Origin: an uncultured Gammaproteobacteria bacterium
GTDB lineage: Bacteria; Pseudomonadota; Gammaproteobacteria; Poriferisulfidales; GCA-002705445
Assembly (NCBI GenBank): GCA_913031205.1
Contig: CAJWEM010000004.1
Location: 1,207-65,206 of the forward strand
Direction of reading: 5' to 3'
Length of the DNA stretch: 64,000 bases
The stretch's first letter is position 1. Each line of letters starts with the position of its first letter. The position numbers were made by a program, and so were the translations under genes. The notes beneath the pieces are model-generated. The model was not told the origin of the DNA. It ran no database searches and worked only from the letters and a program-made list of their open reading frames with translations. Below, in pieces: positions 4,131 through 16,033 of this stretch.

Positions 4131-6059
4131 TTATTTTTTATCGTTATTTACTTCTTTGTACTCGGCATCCACAACATCGGAATCATTACTGCTCTCGGTA
4201 TTGTCTGAAGTAGCTTCGGCATCTGGATTCTGGTTTTGTTTCGCATGCTCAGCATACATCATTTCTGCCATTTTTGCTGATGCTTCAGATAAATTCTTAA
4301 TGCTATTTTCTATTACTTCCTTATCATCGGTCTTAAGAGCCTCGACTAATGCTTCATTTTTCTCTTTTATATTTTTTCTATCTTCATCTGAAACTTTCTC
4401 TCCTAATTCATCTAAAGATTTATTCGTTGCATGGACAAGTGCGTCACCTTGATTTTTCAAGCCTACAAGCTCTTGAAATTTTTTATCATCTTCAGCATGA
4501 AGCTCTGCATCTTTTACCATTTTTTCAATTTCTTCATCAGAGAGACCACTGGATGACTTAATAATTATTGATTGTTCTTTATTTGTTGCTTTATCTTTTG
4601 CTGACACATTAAGAATTCCATTCGCATCAATATCAAAAGTCACTTCAATTTGTGGCATTCCTCTTGGTGCTGGTGGTATATCAGATAGATTAAATTGTCC
4701 AAGAGACTTGTTTCCAGAGGCCATATCTCTTTCTCCTTGTAAAACATGCACAGTAACAGCTGTCTGATTATCCTCAGCTGTGGAGAAAACTTGATTTTGT
4801 TTAGTTGGGATAGTTGAATTTTTCTCGATAAGCTTTGTCATCACTCCGCCCATGGTTTCTATACCAAGTGAAAGGGGTGTAACATCTAATAATAAAACAT
4901 CTGTAACGTCGCCCGCTAAAACACCACCTTGAATTGCGGCGCCTGCAGCAACAGCTTCGTCAGGGTTGACATCTTTTCTAGGATCTTTACCAAAATATTC
5001 TTTTACAACTTTTTGTACCAAAGGCATTCTTGTTTGCCCACCAACTAAAATCACATCGTTAATATCACTTTTTGAAAGCTTTGCATCTTTAAGAGCAGTC
5101 TCACAAGGACTGATTGTTCTTTGAACAAGGTCTTCAACCATTGATTCAAATAAAGCTCTAGTAACCTTCATATTTAAATGCTTTGGTCCACTTGCATCGG
5201 CAGTGATGTAAGGAATATTTATATCAGCTTGCTGACCATTTGATAGCTCTATTTTTGCCTTTTCAGCTGAATCTTTTAATCTTTGAAGGGCTAATGGATC
5301 TGATCTTAAATCAAAATTTTGTTCTTTCTTAAATTCATCGACGATATGATCAATTAGCCTGGAATCAAAATCTTCACCGCCAAGTTGAGTGTCGCCATTT
5401 GTTGAAAGAACTTCTATCTGGTTTTCACCATCAATATCAGATATGTCAATTATAGAAACGTCAAATGTTCCGCCCCCAAGGTCATAAACCGCGATTTTTT
5501 TATCGCCTTTCTTTTGATCTAAGCCATAAGCTACCGCAGCAGCTGTAGGCTCATTAATAATTCTTTGAACATTTAAACCTGCAATTTTACCAGCATCTTT
5601 TGTAGCTTGCCTTTGTGAGTCATTGAAATAGGCTGGAACTGTTATTACAGCATCAGTAACTTCCGAGCCTAAAAATTCCTCAGCTGTTTTCTTCATTTTC
5701 ATTAAGACTTTTGCAGAGATTTCGGGTAGAGCCATTTTCTTATCATCAATTTGAACCCAAACATCTCCGTTATCAGCTTCGACAATACTGTAAGGAAGAA
5801 TAGCTTTGTCTTTTTGGACCTCTTTATCTGAATATTTTCTTCCAATAAAACGTTTTACAGCATAGACGGTTTTTTCAGGATTCGTAACAGATTGACGCTT
5901 GGCAGATTGCCCAACAAGAGTTTCAGCATCCGTGAAAGCTACAACAGAAGGAGTTGTCCTATCACCCTCGCTATTTTCAATAATTCTTGGTCTATCACCT
6001 TCCATAACGGAAACGCATGAATTTGTTGTACCTAAATCAATACCTATAATCTTGCCCAT
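4131..6059 (-). CDS. dnaK: molecular chaperone DnaK (Hsp70)
   Basis: 642 aa with [19 protein letters not shown], and the EEVD-less bacterial C-terminus. A GAGAGG-like RBS lies upstream. Confidence 0.97.
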
Positions 6060-6100
6060 TTTTAAAACCTCTCAAATTAATTAAATATTCGTTAATTCTT

Positions 6101-6128
6101 ATATGAGGACACCAAGAAGTTTTTCAAG
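6101..6128 (-). promoter_or_regulatory. sigma-32 (heat-shock) type promoter candidate for dnaK
   Basis: Minus strand reads CTTGAAA, then a 13-nt spacer, then CCTCATAT, compared with the sigma-32 consensus CTTGAAA-N13-15-CCCCATNT. The -35 overlaps the grpE stop and is followed by an SD and the dnaK ATG. Confidence 0.4.
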
Positions 6129-6714
6129 TTTTTTTTTGATTTTTTTTAGAAACAATTACCAATGCGGGGCGAAGGAGTTTTGAATTTAACTTATATCCCT
6201 TTTGCATGACCTCTAAAACAGTATTTTCTGCTAAATCATCCTCTTTTGTTGCCATGGCTTGGTGAAAATCTGGATCAAATTTCTCATTTAAAGGGTTAAT
6301 TTCCTCAAGATTTAGTTTTTCAAAAACTTCCTTTGCTGTTTTCAGAAGAAGCGTATTTCCTTTTATTAAATCATCTATCTTAAGGCTTTGACTTGTTGCG
6401 GCTTTCTCCGCAGCCTCCAAACTATCCATAATAATTAAAAGTTCAGACGATAGTTTTTCGGTAGAATAAAGTTGAGCCTGTACGAGTTGCTTTTCAGTGC
6501 GTTTTTGAAAATTATCTAGTTCCGCTCTTGATCTTAATAATAAATCGTTAAGTTTTTCGTTTTCTGCGAGCAAATCGGGTTCTTCGGTATTTGGCAAATT
6601 GTCGCCATCTGTCTGGTGTTCTGGGTCCTTCGCCTCTAAGTCATCAGAAGAAATTTCTCCAGCATCTATAATTTCTGAAATATTATCTTTAGCATCCTTA
6701 TTTTTATCTTCCAT
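6124..6714 (-). CDS. grpE: nucleotide exchange factor GrpE
   Basis: 196 aa, acidic N-terminus, coiled-coil and GrpE core (RSRAELDNFQKR...). Confidence 0.92.
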   Translation of the reverse strand: MEDKNKDAKDNISEIIDAGEISSDDLEAKDPEHQTDGDNLPNTEEPDLLAENEKLNDLLLRSRAELDNFQKRTEKQLVQAQLYSTEKLSSELLIIMDSLEAAEKAATSQSLKIDDLIKGNTLLLKTAKEVFEKLNLEEINPLNEKFDPDFHQAMATKEDDLAENTVLEVMQKGYKLNSKLLRPALVIVSKKNQKKT

Positions 6715-6758
6715 AGTGTTTGCCTTAAATTTATTTTTGATAATGTATGATATAAATA

Positions 6759-6787
6759 ATGTATGGTCTAATCTGAAGTTTTCAAGG
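6759..6787 (-). promoter_or_regulatory. weaker sigma-32-like promoter candidate for grpE
   Basis: Minus strand reads CCTTGAAA, a 13-nt spacer, then CCATACAT. The element overlaps the 3' end of hrcA. Confidence 0.25.
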
Positions 6788-7811
6788 CATCACTTAATAA
6801 TTTTGCTGTAATATCTACAATAGGTATTACTCTTTCATAAGCCATTCTTTTTGGTCCAATAACCCCGAGAACGCCCACAACATCGTCGTCAAATTTATAA
6901 GGTGCGCTAATAATACTGCAATCATCAAGAACATTATATCCAGATTCTGCTCCAATAAAAATTTTTACGCCTTTTGAAGAAATACTTTTATCAAGTAAAT
7001 GTAAAATATTATTTTTTTCGTTAAATGCTTCGAATAATGTTTTTAATTTCTCGATATCTGAAAGTTCCTCACAATTCATAAGTTTTGTCTGTCCGCTTAC
7101 TATTAAGTCATCATTTTTTTGAGCTTCATCTGATTCCAAAAAAAGCTGCTTTCCAAAGTTAATAGCCGACGACATAATGCTATTCATATCTTTTCTCATT
7201 TCATCTAATTCGTTAAGTAAAATTTTTCTTATATGATGTATTGACTGCCCAGAAATAATTGAATTTAAATAATTTGAAGCCTCTTGAAGCTCTGATGATG
7301 TATAATTTTTGTCAAGATTAATTATTTTGTTTTCAACATCGTTACTTTTATTTATTAAAATTGCTAAAATTTTGTTATCACTTAACCTTAAAAAATCAAT
7401 TTGTTTTAGTTCAGTATTTTTATGAGTTGGTAAAGATATAATACCTGTAAGTTCTGTTATATTTGATAAAATTTCGTTTGTTTTTTTAACAATATTTTTT
7501 CTTTCAACTCCTTTAGTTAAATTAAGCTTTAGTTTATCAATAAGCTTATTATTAACTGGTTGTACTTTGATCATCTTGTCCACAAACATTCTATAGGCAA
7601 GTTCAGTTGGCACTCTTCCAGCAGATTTATGAGGTGAGTAAATGTATCCAAGATCTTCAAGATCAGTAAATACGTTCCTGATAGTAGCTGAACTTATTGC
7701 AATATCAGACGTTTTGGATAGCTTTGTTGACCCTACTGGTTGACCATCCGAAATAAAGCTTTCAACTAACGCTTTAAGCAACAACTCTTGTCTAGAATTT
7801 AAATTTTCCAT
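6768..7811 (-). CDS. hrcA: heat-inducible transcriptional repressor HrcA
   Basis: 347 aa, N-terminal winged helix (ELLLKALVESFISDGQPVGSTKLS). It heads the hrcA-grpE-dnaK-dnaJ cluster. Confidence 0.88.
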   Translation of the reverse strand: MENLNSRQELLLKALVESFISDGQPVGSTKLSKTSDIAISSATIRNVFTDLEDLGYIYSPHKSAGRVPTELAYRMFVDKMIKVQPVNNKLIDKLKLNLTKGVERKNIVKKTNEILSNITELTGIISLPTHKNTELKQIDFLRLSDNKILAILINKSNDVENKIINLDKNYTSSELQEASNYLNSIISGQSIHHIRKILLNELDEMRKDMNSIMSSAINFGKQLFLESDEAQKNDDLIVSGQTKLMNCEELSDIEKLKTLFEAFNEKNNILHLLDKSISSKGVKIFIGAESGYNVLDDCSIISAPYKFDDDVVGVLGVIGPKRMAYERVIPIVDITAKLLSDALKTSD

Positions 7812-7901
7812 AAAAAAATTTTTGGCTTTTTTTAATAATATAATATTATGAATTATATTATAATGCTATTTTGAACATTTTATAAGCTTACAGGGGGCTT
7901 A

Positions 7902-8768
7902 ATGTCAACATTCGAAAATATAGCAATCATATCGAAAATCAGCGACAACAGTGTGAAAGACAGCCTTGATGCAGTTATTGAATTTTTAGATAAAAAGAAT
8001 ATCAGCTATTACTTGGACAGTAATTCATGTTTATTGCTAAAAGGTAGAAATGAGACTGGAATTGAAGATATAAAGAAAAAATGTGATCTAGCATTTATTA
8101 TCGGAGGCGACGGAACTCTTTTGAGATCTGCCCAAGATTTATCAAAATCTAACATTCCAATATGCGGTATAAATAGAGGTAGGTTAGGTTATCTTGTTGA
8201 TATATCGCCTGATCATATAGAGGAAAATTTAGAAAATATTTTTTCAAATAATTTTTCTATCGACGAAAGAATTTCTTTAGAGGGAAAAGTATTAAGAGAT
8301 GGAAAAGAAGTTGCTAAAAATATTTCTTTCAATGACATTGTAATAAATAGTAAAGATGCAAGGATGATTGAATTAGATGCAATGTTAAATGGGGAAATGC
8401 TTTATACAATAAATGCAGACGGGTTAGTTATTTCTACGCCTACAGGTTCAACTGCTTATTCATTGTCGAGCGGTGGGCCAATTTTAGATCCAACAATGGA
8501 AGCGTTAATATTAGTGCCAATATGTCCCCACTTGCTTAGCAATAGGCCAATTGTTATCAGCATGGATAGTATAATTGAAATTAAAATTTCAGAAAATATA
8601 AAAACAAATGCAAATGTGACTTTTGATGGTCAAATTAGTGTTCCAATTAAACCTAATGACATTGTGAAAATATGTAAAAGTACAACAACTCTAAAATTAA
8701 TCCAGCCTCCAGGTATTAATTTCCTTTCAATTCTAAGGGAGAAGCTTGGATGGGGTTTTAAGCCGTAA
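7902..8768 (+). CDS. nadK: NAD+ kinase
   Basis: GGDGTLL and NRGRLGYL motifs. The grpE-divergent nadK-recN order is as in E. coli. Confidence 0.92.
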   Translation: MSTFENIAIISKISDNSVKDSLDAVIEFLDKKNISYYLDSNSCLLLKGRNETGIEDIKKKCDLAFIIGGDGTLLRSAQDLSKSNIPICGINRGRLGYLVDISPDHIEENLENIFSNNFSIDERISLEGKVLRDGKEVAKNISFNDIVINSKDARMIELDAMLNGEMLYTINADGLVISTPTGSTAYSLSSGGPILDPTMEALILVPICPHLLSNRPIVISMDSIIEIKISENIKTNANVTFDGQISVPIKPNDIVKICKSTTTLKLIQPPGINFLSILREKLGWGFKP

Positions 8769-8772
8769 ATAA

Positions 8773-10422
8773 ATGTTATCAAATATTTATATTAAAAACT
8801 TTGCGATTATTGATGAAATTGAAATTGACTTTTTTGAAAATATGTCAGTTTTAACGGGTGAAACTGGTGCAGGTAAGTCTATTCTTATTGATGCAATCAA
8901 TGTAGTTTTTGGTAATAAGCAAACGAAGAAAATTATTAGAGACGAAAAAAAAGATACAGAGATTATATGCAGTTTTCATATAAATAACGAAAATATTATA
9001 AAGATTCTTGAAAATAAAGATTTATATTCAGATAGTCAATGTATATTTAGAAGAAAAATTAATACAAAGAATATTTCAAAAATTTATATCAATGATAAAC
9101 CAGTAAATTCAAATACAGCAAAGCATATTGGAAATATGATAATTGATATACATGGGCAGCACGAAAATCAACTTATTTTATCAAGTGATGAACAAAGGAA
9201 TAGGCTTGATAACTATATAAATATTAGTAAAGAAAAGGAAGATATCAAAGATATATTATCGAAAATTAATAGTTTAGAAAAAGAATTATCTGATAGCAAC
9301 CTATCAGAAAATGAATATGAGGATAAAATATCACTTTTAGATTTCGAAATAAATGAGCTACAAGATGATACAATTGATTCAGAGAGTTATGATAAATTAT
9401 CAGATGAATTTAATAAGCTAAATAATTCTGAACAATTAATCAACAAAACAAGAGAGTGTCTTAATATTATTGAAGGGGATGATGGTTACAGCGTTAACTC
9501 ACAGCTTTCACAGCTCAATAAGAATTTAGAAGACATTGTTAAAATAGACGATTCTTCAAGTGAAATCTTAAATCAAAATATAATTATCATGGATCAAGTA
9601 AAAGCACTCTCAAAAATGATAGAGAAGTACTCTAATGCAATCAACATGGATCCAGAAAAGCTTGAAACTATAAATAATAAAATTTTATCCCTTAATAAGC
9701 TTGCTAGAAAATATAAAGTTAATGAGAGAGATTTAAGTAAGATACTGAATGATAAAAATTCTCAACTTCAAATATTAAAAAATAATAAAGAAAATTTTAG
9801 TAAAAACAAAGAAGAAATTAATAAGCTTCAAGAAAAGTATCATAAAATTGCATCTAAAATATCAAATACAAGAAAGAAAAATTCAAAAAATCTTGAGAAC
9901 AAAATAACAAATCAGCTTAAAGATCTTGGAATGAATCAGTGTCAATTTAAAATCAATATTCAAACAGATGAAAATTTGATTAAAAAAGATGGTTATGACA
10001 AAGTATCTTTTCTTATTAAAACAAATGATAAATCAAAACTTATGCCGCTGAACGAAATTGCATCTGGGGGAGAACTATCGAGACTTAGTTTAGTAATCCA
10101 GCTTGAAACAAGATCAAATGATGATTGCGAAACTATGATATTTGATGAAATTGATACTGGTATTGGAGGTGCTACTGCAGAAATTTTGGGGCAACATCTT
10201 TCGAATTTAGCGGACAAAACACAAGTCTTATGTGTCACTCACTTAGCACAAGTAGCTGCAAAATCAAAACATCATTATCTTGTCTCAAAAGATAAAGAAA
10301 TATCATCTACCAGATTAGAGTATCTAGATAATGAAATGAGAGTAAATGAATTAGCTAGAATGATTGGTGGAGTTAAGTTAACTGATAAAGCATTACAGTT
10401 TGCAAAAGAGCTAATCGATTAA
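8773..10422 (+). CDS. recN: DNA repair protein RecN
   Basis: 549 aa SMC-like protein with N-terminal Walker A GETGAGKS, a long coiled coil, and the C-terminal signature/Walker B region. Confidence 0.93.
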   Translation: MLSNIYIKNFAIIDEIEIDFFENMSVLTGETGAGKSILIDAINVVFGNKQTKKIIRDEKKDTEIICSFHINNENIIKILENKDLYSDSQCIFRRKINTKNISKIYINDKPVNSNTAKHIGNMIIDIHGQHENQLILSSDEQRNRLDNYINISKEKEDIKDILSKINSLEKELSDSNLSENEYEDKISLLDFEINELQDDTIDSESYDKLSDEFNKLNNSEQLINKTRECLNIIEGDDGYSVNSQLSQLNKNLEDIVKIDDSSSEILNQNIIIMDQVKALSKMIEKYSNAINMDPEKLETINNKILSLNKLARKYKVNERDLSKILNDKNSQLQILKNNKENFSKNKEEINKLQEKYHKIASKISNTRKKNSKNLENKITNQLKDLGMNQCQFKINIQTDENLIKKDGYDKVSFLIKTNDKSKLMPLNEIASGGELSRLSLVIQLETRSNDDCETMIFDEIDTGIGGATAEILGQHLSNLADKTQVLCVTHLAQVAAKSKHHYLVSKDKEISSTRLEYLDNEMRVNELARMIGGVKLTDKALQFAKELID

Positions 10423-10563: not shown

Positions 10564-10740
10564 TTAGTTCTTCCTAGATATTATTTTAAAATAGATGGCG
10601 AAGGCTAAAATTGACGGAATCCAAGTTGCTGTAAACAACGCTTCCTGTTTTGTATCAACTCCTTGAAACCAAAGAAAAGCAGTTGTTACAAATGCGACTG
10701 CAACTGAAAGTAAAATACATATATCTGAAGTCTTTAACAT
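10564..10740 (-). CDS. hypothetical small membrane protein (58 aa, two predicted TM helices)
   Basis: Hand-translated: MLKTSDICILLSVAVAFVTTAFLWFQGVDTKQEALFTATWIPSILAFAIYFKIISRKN. It packs tightly against its neighbours on the same strand. Confidence 0.3.
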   Translation of the reverse strand: MLKTSDICILLSVAVAFVTTAFLWFQGVDTKQEALFTATWIPSILAFAIYFKIISRKN

Positions 10741-10761: not shown

Positions 10762-10950
10762 TTAATCTTCATTCCAAAAAGCCCAAGAGCCTATAAGCAA
10801 CAAAAACACCGCTAAAGATGCATGGGCTCTAACTCTTGTCACCTCTGGCAACTCTATTAACAATGGCACAGCATTAATCATTCCAAGTAATAGCCAAATT
10901 AATGCCAAAGATCCTGAGAAAAGTGCGACTTTTCCAATTTTTCTTTTCAT
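10762..10950 (-). CDS. hypothetical small membrane protein (62 aa, two predicted TM helices)
   Basis: ORF track entry: MKRKIGKVALFSGSLALIWLLLGMINAVPLLIELPEVTRVRAHASLAVFLLLIGSWAFWNED. Confidence 0.35.
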   Translation of the reverse strand: MKRKIGKVALFSGSLALIWLLLGMINAVPLLIELPEVTRVRAHASLAVFLLLIGSWAFWNED

Positions 10951-10989: not shown

Positions 10990-11406
10990 CTATTCTTCAT
11001 CTAGAAACTCGCCATAGAGTATCATACTATGGTCATTTATTTTAAAATTATGTTCTTTTGCGATTTCTCTCTGTCTATTCTCTATTATTTCATCATAAAA
11101 CTCTACAACCTTACCGGTTTTAAGAGATACCATATGATCATGATGATCTCCATGGTTTAATTCAAATACTGCTTGACTGTTTCCTTCTGAGTCAAAATGA
11201 TGCCTAATTACGATTTTTGCAGCTTCAAATTGTGTTAATACTCTATAGACGGTAGCTAAACTAATTACTTCTCCATCATTTATCAATTCCTTATAAATAT
11301 CTTCAGCGGACATGTGGTGTTTTTCAGCATTTTCAAGCTTACTCAATATTTTTACTCTAGGAAGAGTGATCTTTAATCCAGCATTTTTTAATTCTATATT
11401 GCTCAT
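10990..11406 (-). CDS. fur: ferric uptake regulator Fur
   Basis: Fur fold with HHDH and HxH metal sites (NHGDHHDHMV) and an N-terminal winged helix. I placed the start at the internal ATG (MSNIELKNAGLKITLPRVKIL, matching Fur N-termini), because the track start is a TTG 39 nt upstream. It is divergent from bamE, as with Pseudomonas fur-omlA. Confidence 0.85.
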   Translation of the reverse strand: MSNIELKNAGLKITLPRVKILSKLENAEKHHMSAEDIYKELINDGEVISLATVYRVLTQFEAAKIVIRHHFDSEGNSQAVFELNHGDHHDHMVSLKTGKVVEFYDEIIENRQREIAKEHNFKINDHSMILYGEFLDEE

Positions 11407-11450
11407 ATTTGCTATATTATCCTTAATTAAGTTAACAATATACAAAAAAA

Positions 11451-12485
11451 GTGAAAAATTTAAAACTACCTCTAATCTTTGTTTTTACAGTATTTTTATC
11501 AGCATGCCAACTTCTTCCTGAAAATACTCAATTAAAAAGCTACAGAGTTCTTGTGCAACAAGGCAACGTTATAGAAGAAAGTAAGGTGGATTCTTTAAAA
11601 ATAGACATGTCAAAAGAACAGGTGATTTTTCTGCTTGGAGAGCCAGTTTTAGATAATATATTTGATAAGGATAGATGGGATTACGTATATTTTCGAAAAA
11701 GAGATCCTGAAAAAACACAACTTAATATGGTAAGCATATTTTTTGAAAAAGAAAAGATAGTAAGCATGAAAAGAATTGTTAAAAACGATGATGGATTATT
11801 CGAGATTAACGGAAATACCTTAAAAAACAAACCTGAGTTTATTGATGATCAAGAGGTTTTAGCTCTCCAAAAAAATATTTTTGAAGATATTGAGCTAGAA
11901 GGAAGTTTAAGCGATACAAATGAAGAGACTTTAGAAAATAATTTAGAAGAAGGATTAATTAAGCCTGAAAATAATAATAATGGTGATAAAGACAAAAACG
12001 AACAAATTAATGATATAAAAGTTTCAGATAAAAAGATAGAAAAACAAGAAAGTGACAAAATAAATAAAGCTGAAACAATTCCAACAGAAAAAAAAGAAAT
12101 TTATAATGAGCCAATGAAGAGAAAGAGTGATCTTGAAATTGTCTCAGATACATTAAATCAATGGGCATCGTCTTGGGAAAATAAAAATCTTGAAGAATAT
12201 TTTGCTTTCTACATAGATAATTATACCCCGCAATCCTTTGATAGTAATGACCAATGGAAAAAAGATCGTGAAAAAAGAATATTAAATAAGAATAAAATAT
12301 CTTTAGAAATTAAAAACCTATCAATAACATTTATGATAAATGAAAAGGAAACTGCAACAGCAGTCTTTCAACAAAAATATTCCTCAGAGAGATACTCTGA
12401 CTCAGTAAAAAAACAAATTATTTTTGAGAAAATAAATAAAAACTGGAGAATTATTTCAGAAGTTCTGCTAGAAGGTGAATATTAA
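11451..12485 (+). CDS. bamE: BamE (SmpA/OmlA) outer-membrane lipoprotein fused to an acidic linker and a C-terminal NTF2-like domain
   Basis: Lipoprotein signal plus lipobox (FLSAC). BamE domain aa about 20-115 (KIDMSKEQVIFLLGEPV...DRWDYVY). A low-complexity E/K/N/D linker spans aa about 116-220. The C-terminal 120 aa show a W-x3-W...D-x-Y...F...W...R pattern (LNQWASSWENKNLEEYFAFYIDNY...NWRIISE), typical of SnoaL/DUF4440-like NTF2-fold domains. Confidence 0.75.
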   Translation: MKNLKLPLIFVFTVFLSACQLLPENTQLKSYRVLVQQGNVIEESKVDSLKIDMSKEQVIFLLGEPVLDNIFDKDRWDYVYFRKRDPEKTQLNMVSIFFEKEKIVSMKRIVKNDDGLFEINGNTLKNKPEFIDDQEVLALQKNIFEDIELEGSLSDTNEETLENNLEEGLIKPENNNNGDKDKNEQINDIKVSDKKIEKQESDKINKAETIPTEKKEIYNEPMKRKSDLEIVSDTLNQWASSWENKNLEEYFAFYIDNYTPQSFDSNDQWKKDREKRILNKNKISLEIKNLSITFMINEKETATAVFQQKYSSERYSDSVKKQIIFEKINKNWRIISEVLLEGEY

Positions 12486-12766
12486 TTCTTTTTGAAGTTA
12501 AATTTTCTTTTCTCGTTTGGCGTCATTTTTAAATCATCAAAAATTTCAATCCTGTCCTTATCATTGATAATATAATCACGCTCAATTTTCTTTCCAAAAC
12601 ATCCATAGGATTTTTTAGATAAAAAATCAACTGAAAATATAGACGTTTTAATTAAATAATCAATTAAGTCATTTAAAGTTTTATTTTTCTCAAAAAATAA
12701 ATTATGGTGGATGATATCATTATCTGGTTTAACGTAAATTATTTCAATTTCGATATTAATTTCCAT
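12482..12766 (-). CDS. ratB: RnfH/UPF0125 family ubiquitin-like protein (E. coli YfjF/RatB homolog)
   Basis: 94 aa with the DRIEIF...DPKE...RK motif pattern of the RnfH family. It lies downstream of ratA and overlaps it by 11 nt. Confidence 0.7.
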   Translation of the reverse strand: MEINIEIEIIYVKPDNDIIHHNLFFEKNKTLNDLIDYLIKTSIFSVDFLSKKSYGCFGKKIERDYIINDKDRIEIFDDLKMTPNEKRKFNFKKN

Positions 12767-13184
12767 TTTTTTTCATTGATTCATCTATAAAAGCCTTCAC
12801 GAGATAATTTGTAATTTTATCGAGAGATTTTCCAACGGTATACTCAACGATTTTATTTTCTGCCTCGTAATTAATATGCAGGTAAATTATTGTTTTTCCA
12901 TCAACACTTTTAAAATCCCAGACCCCATCTAAGAATTTGAAGGGGCCATCAATTAATTTCATATTAATTGACTGGTTTTTTTTAATTTCGTTTCTTGTTG
13001 TAAAAGATGTTGAAAGTCCTTTAAGGTTAAAATCTAGCTTAGCTTCCATAAACTTGTCATCTTCGGATAATATTTTTGACTCTGTACAGTATGGAACAAA
13101 GTTTTTATATAAATTAACTCTATTAACTATATCAAAAACTGTTTCAATATCTTTTAATATTATTGCCTCTTTTTTTATAATCAT
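12756..13184 (-). CDS. ratA: SRPBCC (Coq10/polyketide cyclase-like) ribosome-association toxin RatA homolog
   Basis: 142 aa START/Bet v1-like fold protein. Its position between smpB and bamE matches E. coli yfjG (ratA). Confidence 0.7.
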   Translation of the reverse strand: MIIKKEAIILKDIETVFDIVNRVNLYKNFVPYCTESKILSEDDKFMEAKLDFNLKGLSTSFTTRNEIKKNQSINMKLIDGPFKFLDGVWDFKSVDGKTIIYLHINYEAENKIVEYTVGKSLDKITNYLVKAFIDESMKKNGN

Positions 13185-14598: not shown

Positions 14599-15087
14599 AT
14601 GAATATTATGGGACAAAGAGATAAAAATACAGAAAATATTATAGCTGTCAACAAAAAAGCAACACATGATTATTTTATTCTTGAAAAATTGGAGGCTGGC
14701 CTCGTGCTTGAAGGGTGGGAAGTAAAAGGAATTAGGGCTTTAAAAGTACAATTAAGAGAGGCATATGTAAGAGTAATTAAAGGTAACGTTTTACTTATTG
14801 GCTCACATATAACACCTCCAAAGTTCGTAGATAAAAGTGAAGATAAAAATGTCAATAGGACTAGAAAACTTCTTCTTAATCAAAAAGAAATCTTTATGCT
14901 GACAGGTAAAATAAAAAAAGATGGTTTAACATTAATTCCTTTATCGTTGTATTGGAAAAACAATAAAGTGAAGTTAATGATTGGTATTGCAAAAGGTAAG
15001 AAAAAATATGATAAAAGACAAGAAGAAAAGAACAAAGATTGGTCGATTCAAAAGAACCGACTATCTAAGAAAATTCAAAAAAAATAA
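14599..15087 (+). CDS. smpB: SsrA-binding protein SmpB
   Basis: AVNKKATHDYFILEKLEAGLVLEGWEVK matches the SmpB core, with a basic C-terminal tail. The true start may be the ATG at 14608. Confidence 0.9.
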   Translation: MNIMGQRDKNTENIIAVNKKATHDYFILEKLEAGLVLEGWEVKGIRALKVQLREAYVRVIKGNVLLIGSHITPPKFVDKSEDKNVNRTRKLLLNQKEIFMLTGKIKKDGLTLIPLSLYWKNNKVKLMIGIAKGKKKYDKRQEEKNKDWSIQKNRLSKKIQKK

Positions 15088-15092
15088 ATAAT

Positions 15093-15293
15093 TTATTCTC
15101 TATTACAAGAAAAGACTTCCACGTTCACATCAATTTGTGCCCTTACGCCATCAATACATTCTTCGTAAGAACTATATTCTCCGATTACATTATTATTGTT
15201 TACAGCAATCCACATTCCTGAATCTTCGCTATATTTTAAATATCCCCAAAATCCAACAATTAGTAAGACTATAAGCATAAATATTTTATCCAT
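15093..15293 (-). CDS. hypothetical small protein (66 aa) with N-terminal signal-anchor and two Cys
   Basis: ORF track: MDKIFMLIVLLIVGFWGYLKYSE...EECIDGVRAQIDVNVEVFSCNRE. It fills the smpB-dnaQ gap. Supported by context only. Confidence 0.3.
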   Translation of the reverse strand: MDKIFMLIVLLIVGFWGYLKYSEDSGMWIAVNNNNVIGEYSSYEECIDGVRAQIDVNVEVFSCNRE

Positions 15294-15334
15294 ATTGGTT
15301 CCGCCTTTTATAATAATTTTAGTTTTTTATTATA

Positions 15335-16033
15335 TCAAAACTTAGAAATTTTCCAAATACATCTGCCTTTCGATATCTCATCAATCTTTTTACATAATTC
15401 TTGATGCTCTCTAAGCTCTTCTTCATCTGCCTTTATAACAACAAATTTTCCAGATAATTCTTCTTTATTATCTTTTTGTCTACTTTCTTCTTTTTGAGGT
15501 AATTCGAAAGAGGTTTGCCCTCCTGTCATCGCAAGATAAACGTCTCCAAGAATTTTTGCATCTAGTAATGCTCCATGAAAATCTCTTGATGAATTATCTA
15601 CGTTATATCTTTTACACAACGCATCAAGACTATTCTTTTGGCCTGGATGCAGTCTCCTTGCGTACACCAAAGTATCAAAAATTTTACATTCTTCGGATAA
15701 TTTTATATTTTGAGAGGAGAAATTAAATTCGTATTCAATAAATCCGACATCAAATGGGGCATTATGTATTATGAGTTCAGCCCCTTTAATGAAATTCAAC
15801 AGGTCATCTTTTACATCGATAAATAAAGGTTTATCTTCTAAAAATTCATTTGATATGCCATGAACGTTAATTGCACCCTGGTCTATTTTTCTCTCTGGAT
15901 TAAGATAATGATGAAAATTATTTCCAGTATATTTTCTATCAATTAGCTCAACACAACCAATTTCAATAATTTTGTGCTTTCTTGTGACGTCTAGCCCTGT
16001 TGTCTCAGTGTCTAATATTATCTGCCTATTCAC
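15335..16033 (-). CDS. dnaQ: DNA polymerase III epsilon subunit (3'-5' proofreading exonuclease)
   Basis: DEDDh exonuclease motifs ILDTETTG, HNAPFDVGF, and YLAMTGG at the C-terminus. Confidence 0.9.
   Translation of the reverse strand: MNRQIILDTETTGLDVTRKHKIIEIGCVELIDRKYTGNNFHHYLNPERKIDQGAINVHGISNEFLEDKPLFIDVKDDLLNFIKGAELIIHNAPFDVGFIEYEFNFSSQNIKLSEECKIFDTLVYARRLHPGQKNSLDALCKRYNVDNSSRDFHGALLDAKILGDVYLAMTGGQTSFELPQKEESRQKDNKEELSGKFVVIKADEEELREHQELCKKIDEISKGRCIWKISKF

Follow-up and report, generated by a model that had tools for sequence, protein, structure and literature searches.

A BamE lipoprotein with a C-terminal NTF2-like domain of the Csd6/Pgp2/Bd1075 type in an uncultured gammaproteobacterium

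BamE is a lipoprotein of the β-barrel assembly machine (BAM) of the bacterial outer membrane and is treated as its smallest subunit, with a mass of about 10 kDa (PMC3359395). Contacts of this machine with the cell wall have been described in Escherichia coli, where mature peptidoglycan rich in tetrapeptides binds to components of BAM and suppresses the foldase activity of these, and where BamE binds tetrapeptide chains in vitro and is not cross-linked to peptidoglycan in vivo (PMC9242858); in Caulobacter the BAM complex includes Pal as a peptidoglycan-anchoring module (PMC2797634). In a different setting, Bd1075, Csd6 and Pgp2 are periplasmic LD-carboxypeptidases that trim the stem peptides of peptidoglycan and carry an accessory domain of the NTF2 fold. 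In Pgp2, nuclear magnetic resonance shows peptidoglycan fragments bound in the pocket of this domain, substitutions in the pocket abolish function and do not restore cell shape, and the K307A variant associates only weakly with sacculi in a pull-down (PMC8038945), while the NTF2 domain of Bd1075 directs the targeting of that enzyme within the periplasm (PMC8938487). Here we describe a gene in which these two elements are joined. It lies on a stretch of 64,000 nucleotides from an uncultured Gammaproteobacteria bacterium (contig CAJWEM010000004.1), which we refer to as the window, meaning the whole stretch that was analysed, and it encodes a BamE lipoprotein that continues through a long disordered spacer into an NTF2-like domain of the Csd6/Pgp2/Bd1075 type.

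The gene, here termed bamE-NTF2, occupies positions 11451..12485 of the forward (+) strand and was defined from the listing of open reading frames (ORFs), the Pfam matches to BamE and Cds6_C, and full-length homologs in at least 246 clusters. Its ORF has a GTG start and runs uninterrupted through 344 residues to the stop codon. An earlier note on this DNA had read the product as a BamE extended three-fold by an acidic linker and a C-terminal NTF2-like domain, and every motif that it quoted (MKNLKLPLIFVFTVFLSAC, KIDMSKEQVIFLLGEP...DRWDYVY, LNQWASSWENKNLEEYFAFY and FEKINKNWRIISE) was located in the translation of ORF 11451..12485; the three-fold extension likewise holds, as E. coli BamE has 113 residues (a coding sequence of 342 nucleotides). 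The analysis confirmed the overall layout: a signal peptide with lipobox leads into the BamE domain, and a disordered spacer of about 110 residues connects this to a C-terminal domain of the NTF2 fold. Both Pfam matches lie far above the chance level.

The C-terminal domain comprises residues 225-344 (12123..12482, + strand), and its type was assigned from Pfam, AlphaFold2 (AF2), Foldseek and profile searches. The Pfam family Cds6_C (PF24125) matches residues 232-337 with an E-value of 3.9e-15 and a score of 56.5 bits (cut-off 27), and the match extends over positions 3-110 of the 111 in the profile. The name 'Cds6' appears to be a spelling variant of Helicobacter pylori Csd6/HP0518; the same spelling is used in PMC4398505. 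Among sequences of known structure the best matches of the domain are Bd1075 (PDB: 7o21, E 2e-4) and Csd6 (PDB: 4xzz, E 9e-3). The profile of an alignment of 25 divergent BamE-attached NTF2 domains (alignment A2, 23-44% mutual identity) recovered from the PDB Bd1075 (1e-16), Csd6 (6e-9) and Pgp2 (3e-8), with E-values of 1e-16 to 6e-7 overall, and its sole other match was a marginal one to adiponectin (E 0.0026). The AF2 model shows the cone of the NTF2 fold at a predicted local distance difference test (pLDDT) of 92-98, with helices at residues 227-243, 247-252 and 266-278 followed by four long strands. In Foldseek searches of the PDB the top six places for both models are taken by Bd1075, Csd6 and Pgp2, at a root mean square deviation (rmsd) of 1.8-2.9 Å, and generic proteins of the NTF2 fold, such as dehydratases and CaMKII hubs, rank below them. 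The proposal of the earlier note that this region is a SnoaL/DUF4440-type domain of the NTF2 fold is therefore upheld as to the fold, given the pLDDT values and the Foldseek matches, and has to be corrected as to the family: the domain is a member of Cds6_C and not a generic SnoaL/DUF4440 domain, since SnoaL_3, with 14.2 bits (E 0.057), stays below its cut-off of 22 and Pfam gives no DUF4440 match for this protein.

Pfam finds no match to the YkuD catalytic domain (PF03734) anywhere in the protein, which is hence not an enzyme of the Csd6/Pgp2 type and has the accessory domain alone in common with these; there is likewise no Pfam match to the OmpA-C-like/Pal domain (PF00691) in the protein. 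It is very improbable that the NTF2 domain is itself a catalyst, either of the SnoaL/dehydratase/isomerase type or a glycosidase (an activity once suggested for Csd6), that is incidentally tethered to BamE. The weak SnoaL_3 similarity that could be cited for such an enzyme is under the Pfam cut-off, and the scytalone and bile-acid dehydratases found among the fold matches align at an rmsd of 3.4-4 Å and 9-16% identity, as against 1.8-2.9 Å for the non-catalytic accessory domains. A catalytic part is conceivable for the invariant polar residues Q308, K321, E337 and R273, and Csd6 has been hypothesised to act as a pseudaminidase (PMC4599014), but the NTF2 domains of Csd6, Pgp2 and Bd1075 have no demonstrated catalytic activity, and tandem repetition, which is seen in this family, is unusual among enzymes.

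The fusion is also found far beyond this genome. A search with the full protein recovered at least 246 clusters at 90% identity, in which 120 of 120 proteins among the matches listed have both Pfam domains, and the sources of these clusters include ENA, JGI, NCBI, Tara and Logan assemblies, with single-cell genomes as well as metagenomes among them. Both the fusion and its synteny recur in two single-cell genomes (L001 and L002). On a long-read contig of 1.1 Mb (L084, ENA ERZ28548055, positions 5883-7954) the fusion ORF is intact beside fragmented recN and fur genes, the fragments being probably due to uncorrected frameshift errors. With a profile made from 50 divergent fusions and a limit of E<=1e-10, the clusters recovered numbered at least 1,830, and here too 120 of 120 among the matches listed combine BamE with Cds6_C. 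That bamE and a separate NTF2 gene had been fused artificially, through a frameshift or a mis-assembly (which the earlier note had named as a possible refutation) or through the loss of a stop codon, was accordingly rejected, and we give it practically no credence: the ORF is single and uninterrupted, the same continuous ORF recurs in at least 246 independent clusters from varied assemblies and the fusion in at least 1,830 clusters drawn from two classes of Proteobacteria, and it survives intact on the error-prone long-read contig. No support for such an artefact was found, partial proteins (e.g. P0121 and P0123) coming only from very short contigs.

When 1.84 billion representatives were searched exhaustively with HMMER, 6,959 matches came out at E<=1e-3, and the architectures were counted in the best 150 representatives of these, each less than 50% identical to the others. 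Sixty of the 150 consist of BamE with one NTF2 domain, 10 have two NTF2 domains and three have three, with lengths of up to 1,060 residues, and Pfam confirmed the BamE-NTF2 architecture in 18 of the 20 proteins tested. The source names read 'Gammaproteobacteria bacterium' for the clade of the window and Burkholderiales, Betaproteobacteria and Gallionella for others; one betaproteobacterial fusion of 465 residues is also divergent from fur, in the arrangement fur<>bamE-dapB. A scan of genome contigs found two full-length fusions, while 78 other loci, in named gammaproteobacterial genomes (Steroidobacteraceae, Kistimonas and others), encode a short canonical BamE. The fusion is thus a large family of Beta- and Gammaproteobacteria and not peculiar to this organism. 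Its members always carry the plain product name 'outer membrane protein assembly factor BamE', so that thousands of BamE-NTF2 proteins sit in an annotation blind spot under the label 'BamE' alone. Our literature search returned nothing relevant on BamE with an NTF2 domain or on a C-terminal extension of BamE, and a 2012 survey of the BAM lipoproteins gives BamE as about 10 kDa and, in the portion of its text available, leaves longer forms unmentioned; the architecture seems to be present in domain databases but undescribed.

The N-terminal part of the protein has the features of an ordinary BamE. Residues 1-19 (11451..11507, +) read as a lipoprotein signal peptide with the lipobox L-S-A-C19: the segment MKNLKLPLIFVFTVFLSA preceding C19 fits the lipobox pattern [LVI][ASTVI][GAS]C, and the predicted residue at +2 of the mature protein is Gln. 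C19 is invariant in 28 homologs of the clade and conserved at 90% or more in 50-70 divergent fusions. The BamE domain follows at residues 20-111 (11508..11783, +; Pfam core 38-105) with an α-α-β-β-β order of elements, and was assigned from Pfam, PDB, AF2 and Foldseek evidence. Pfam BamE (PF04355) matches residues 38-105 with an E-value of 3e-20 and a score of 72.2 bits, where the cut-off is 23.2; the N-terminal part has 21 PDB sequence matches at E<=0.01, and 20 of them are BamE/OmlA/SmpA proteins, including subunit E of the E. coli BAM complex. In the AF2 model this domain has a pLDDT of 76-93, with helices at residues 43-47 and 55-62 and strands at 75-82, 90-99 and 102-111, which is the two-helix, three-stranded antiparallel sheet of BamE, and Foldseek matches it to Neisseria gonorrhoeae BamE (PDB: 5wam) with an E-value of 1.3e-5. 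The BamE domain with its lipobox, as first read from the motifs, is in this way supported by the Pfam match, the invariance of C19 in the clade and the PDB matches. The NCBIfam equivalog PRK11548, which describes the enterobacterial type of BamE, scores 37 bits, below its cut-off of 93; it is a narrow model that does not define the BamE family, and NCBI still names the homologs BamE.

Between the two domains, residues 106-224 (119 residues) form an acidic spacer in which D+E make up 25% and K+R 16%, rich in N, with 3% aromatic residues and a net charge of -11. Over most of residues 112-222 the AF2 block means of pLDDT are 43-57, rising to about 68 near the NTF2 domain. The model used was made from a diverse alignment of 70 sequences, a shallow clade-only alignment having left the BamE domain unmodelled; it predicts no packing between the domains, with a predicted template modelling score (pTM) of 0.49. 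In an alignment of 28 clade homologs (A1), pairwise identity is 88% in the N-terminal tail (residues 20-37), 78% in the BamE core (38-105), 59% in the segment after BamE (106-150), 18% in the linker (151-224), whose length varies from 39 to 105 residues, and 55% in the NTF2 domain (225-344). Because the NTF2 and BamE domains are conserved at 55% and 78% as against 18% for the linker, the fusion is taken to be under selection, and the model portrays two folded, constrained domains on a free disordered tether.

The first part of the spacer, residues 112-150 (11784..11900, +), has no confident structure (pLDDT 43-57) but is conserved in the clade, where G115, L116, F117, P128, F130, F144, I147 and L149 are invariant; it is not conserved in the betaproteobacterial fusions, and may be a short linear docking motif. 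The second part, residues 151-224 (11901..12122, +), is a hypervariable acidic linker of low complexity, as judged from alignment, composition and AF2, with 26% D+E, 18% K+R and 1% aromatic residues; its pLDDT is below about 55 and it is predicted to be disordered. Composition, low pLDDT and the 18% pairwise identity agree with the acidic linker that the earlier note had described and indicate that it is disordered. Across 73 fusions the linkers measure 32-530 residues (median 126), are Ala/Pro-rich or charged and almost without aromatics, and outside the AT-rich clade they contain 21% A and 13% P and are net acidic, a composition typical of extended periplasmic spacers.

The NTF2 domain's pocket was compared with those of the characterized proteins by a computed mapping, in which Pgp2 Y233, F242, K257, K307 and E324 correspond to Y250, Y258, R273, K321 and E337 here, and Bd1075 Y274, at the base of the pocket, to Y310; the Bdellovibrio-specific W303 of Bd1075 corresponds to L339 and is not conserved. 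The alignment register is fixed, because the wild-type and K307A chains of Pgp2 differ exactly at the invariant Lys of the profile. Judged by alignment, all five (5/5) of the Pgp2 pocket residues tested by mutation are retained, as are 10 of the 14 pocket residues of Csd6 (W238, W242, Y250, Y254, Y258, R273, Y310, Y315, K321 and E337); the other four positions (P260, Q261, D272 and I283) are changed. The kept positions are invariant or nearly so in the 25 divergent BamE-attached domains, despite the low mutual identity of these (23-44%).

The earlier note had suggested that the extra domain might tether or sense something in the periplasm. As the domain belongs to the Cds6_C family shared with Csd6, Pgp2 and Bd1075, peptidoglycan is the likely partner, and by analogy with these proteins we see an even chance that the ligand of the NTF2 pocket is a stem peptide of peptidoglycan or a muropeptide, in which case BamE would tether BAM to the sacculus or report on its state. 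Several considerations weigh against this. NTF2 folds serve very diverse functions, and peptidoglycan binding by the BamE-attached domains would be an extrapolation from relatives at about 15-23% identity. An isolated NTF2 pocket may bind weakly, because high-affinity binding of peptidoglycan by Pgp2 required both its catalytic and its NTF2 domain, and the specificity may differ, because of the four changed Csd6 pocket positions. The NTF2 domain here is also slightly acidic (net charge -2) as against the basic domain of Csd6 (isoelectric point 9.4), and pseudaminic acid has been put forward, from docking only, as a different ligand for Csd6 (PMC4599014).

A possible, if rather doubtful, alternative is that the ligand of the domain is a different one, found in the periplasm or in a membrane (for example a lipid, a lipopolysaccharide precursor or a hydrophobic small molecule), or that the domain reaches the inner membrane or the Sec machinery by means of its long tether; the fusion would then link BAM with the supply of substrates or lipids instead of with the cell wall. 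NTF2 pockets typically hold hydrophobic ligands, and the authors of the Csd6 study report a pocket that is deep and for the most part hydrophobic, and propose a sugar acid as its ligand (PMC4599014); yet the charged or polar Pgp2 pocket residues K307, E324 and K257 are invariant or nearly so in the present family. The pocket here is unlike that of Csd6 at four of 14 positions and generic NTF2 enzymes and small-molecule binders are also among the fold matches, but every one of the closest relatives, by sequence as well as by structure, acts on peptidoglycan. Linkers as long as 530 residues exceed the length required for reaching the peptidoglycan layer, whereas the tandem repeats and the several unrelated outer-membrane partners of the domain (see below) are more readily explained by a shared polymeric anchor than by one specific small ligand.

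Should the pocket indeed bind peptidoglycan, the lipid-anchored BamE domain would take its usual place on BamA/BamD at the outer membrane's inner face, the disordered spacer would pay out over the distance from the outer membrane to the cell wall, and the NTF2 pocket would hold a stem peptide or muropeptide, whereby BAM would be tethered to the sacculus or would sense its local state. The outcome would be a BAM complex that is immobilised or positioned, and a coupling of outer-membrane protein insertion to cell-wall status. Tandem NTF2 copies would add avidity toward a polymer, and the copy number of one to three on BamE fits this, as expected.

The NTF2 domain could instead be a module for protein-protein contacts or self-association, in the manner of the CaMKII hub or of NTF2 dimers, that clusters BAM into assembly precincts or recruits a chaperone or a BAM subunit, which we consider improbable. 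Many NTF2-like domains oligomerise and CaMKII hubs are among the fold matches with E-values of about 5e-5, but these hub-like matches are weaker and structurally farther (rmsd >3 Å) than those to the LD-carboxypeptidase domains. In the crystal of Bd1075 a loop of a neighbouring molecule lies in the pocket (PMC8938487), and the clade-conserved motif at residues 112-150 could by the same token serve as a peptide ligand of the pocket; against this, Bd1075 is monomeric, Csd6 dimerises via its N-terminal domain and not via NTF2, and the AF2 model lacks interdomain packing.

BamE is one of several partners of the Cds6_C domain, which in one to five copies also follows TolC-family, TpsB/ShlB, TPR and AAA_22 proteins; examples are a TolC-family channel (P0197 and P0198) and a TpsB/ShlB barrel of the Omp85 type (P0150). 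Tandem arrays of two to five copies occur in the non-BamE fusion proteins P0197, P0198, P0150, P0130, P0131, P0165 and P0194. An ExeA/GspA-like reading of the proteins that combine AAA_22 with NTF2 was not used, their sole NCBIfam match being a weak, sub-threshold one to a PEP-CTERM-associated ATPase. Several of the partners (BamE, TolC-like and TpsB proteins) are outer-membrane proteins with periplasm-facing C-termini, and the spread over TolC, TpsB, TPR and AAA_22 partners suggests a general envelope-docking module. The NTF2 domain had been regarded in the study of Pgp2 as confined to helical cells (PMC8038945), a restriction that is contradicted by the much wider partners and distribution of Cds6_C. 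We tentatively put forward, at somewhat less than even confidence, that the Cds6_C NTF2 domain is an unrecognised general module for docking to the cell wall in the periplasm, a functional analogue of the OmpA-C-like domain, which has been recruited repeatedly to outer-membrane proteins (BamE, TolC-like channels, TpsB transporters and TPR lipoproteins) in Beta- and Gammaproteobacteria, and that the copy on BamE hard-wires BAM to peptidoglycan stem peptides. If so, the maturation state of the cell wall would directly set the place and time of outer-membrane protein insertion, and in genome-streamlined marine bacteria BamE-NTF2 might stand in for separate tethering proteins.

The gene neighborhood places bamE-NTF2 at the canonical locus of bamE. 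Upstream lies recN (8773..10422, +; Pfam SMC_N/AAA_23), and the divergent neighbor is fur (10990..11445, -; Pfam FUR, E 1e-39; probable true start ATG 11406). Downstream follow the convergent rnfH (yfjF; 12482..12766, -; Pfam Ub-RnfH, E 3.9e-10), a ratA-like gene of the SRPBCC superfamily (12756..13184, -; Pfam Polyketide_cyc, E 7.5e-23) and smpB (14599..15087, +; Pfam SmpB, E 7e-50). The whole order in the window, grpE(-) hrcA(-) nadK(+) recN(+), two small ORFs and fur(-), bamE-NTF2(+) rnfH(-) ratA(-), a symporter gene(-) and smpB(+), matches in order and strands that of E. coli K-12, namely grpE(-) nadK(+) recN(+) bamE(+) yfjF/rnfH(-) ratA(-) smpB(+), in which recN, rnfH, ratA and smpB serve as synteny markers. 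Compared with E. coli, the window has an SNF-family sodium symporter between ratA and smpB, and hrcA between grpE and nadK. The same bamE synteny is kept in both single-cell genomes and on the long-read contig mentioned above, and the divergence from fur resembles the fur-omlA arrangement of Pseudomonas. No second BamE or NTF2 ORF was found within the 64-kb window. In both position and sequence the protein is shown to be orthologous to BamE, the lipoprotein subunit of BAM in the outer membrane, and the statement that this is the organism's BamE at a fur-divergent locus is sustained both by Pfam and by the E. coli-like recN-bamE-rnfH-ratA-smpB synteny.

Some further observations concern the immediate surroundings of the gene. 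The longest fur ORF begins at TTG 11445, 5 bp from the GTG of bamE; its likely true start is ATG 11406 (MSNIELK...), giving a divergent intergenic region of just 44 bp. A search of the whole window for the Fur-box consensus, with up to 3 mismatches allowed, found none. At its other end, the stop codon of bamE-NTF2 overlaps that of the convergent rnfH (12482-12485), and therefore no space is left for an intrinsic terminator; the overlap is consistent with a strongly compacted genome of 30.8% GC. Two small hydrophobic ORFs of 58 and 62 residues, at 10564-10740 (-) and 10762-10950 (-), lie between recN and fur and have no Pfam match. They are 98% identical in one of the single-cell genomes (L001) and 89-91% in the other (L002), where the adjacent BamE-NTF2 proteins are 71-77% and 60% identical, respectively, and are probably real small membrane proteins. 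ARAGORN and Rfam found no tmRNA gene (ssrA) beside smpB (14599-15335) or elsewhere in the window; in E. coli, ssrA comes after smpB.

The coupling of BAM to the cell wall has been an active question since the finding on mature peptidoglycan in E. coli (PMC9242858), and the BamE-NTF2 family, in which one to three copies of the domain are covalently attached to BamE and the domain's relatives of known structure either bind peptidoglycan or are targeted by it, offers a natural and testable system for the coupling of BAM to the sacculus. It also extends the known range of the Csd6/Pgp2/Bd1075 NTF2 domain past helical or curved bacteria and peptidoglycan hydrolases. With BamE (SmpA/OmlA; E. coli b2617, Pseudomonas aeruginosa OmlA and the N. 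gonorrhoeae protein 5wam) the protein has the lipobox, the BamE sequence and fold, and the locus in common; a canonical BamE, however, has about 110-150 residues and ends soon after the third strand, whereas here a spacer of about 110 residues and an NTF2 domain of 120 residues are added. With Pgp2 (Campylobacter jejuni, 6xj6), Csd6 (H. pylori, 4xzz) and Bd1075 (Bdellovibrio bacteriovorus, 7o21) it shares the Pfam family, the conserved pocket and the periplasmic location, but the YkuD/LD-carboxypeptidase domain is absent and the NTF2 domain hangs on a disordered tether instead of being packed on a catalytic domain. SnoaL and DUF4440 domains have the superfamily fold and the W-x3-W...Y signature in common with it, and secondary DUF4440 or SnoaL_3 matches occur in some homologs. 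To the Pal of Caulobacter and the non-covalent BAM-peptidoglycan contacts of E. coli it would be comparable in its proposed and here hypothetical role, that of coupling the machine for outer-membrane protein insertion to the sacculus. Like the OmpA-C-like domains, Cds6_C has been appended to several different outer-membrane proteins; unlike Pal and the OmpA-C-like domains, to which it has no homology, it is of the NTF2 fold, and the predicted anchor is covalently fused to a BAM subunit rather than being a separate module.

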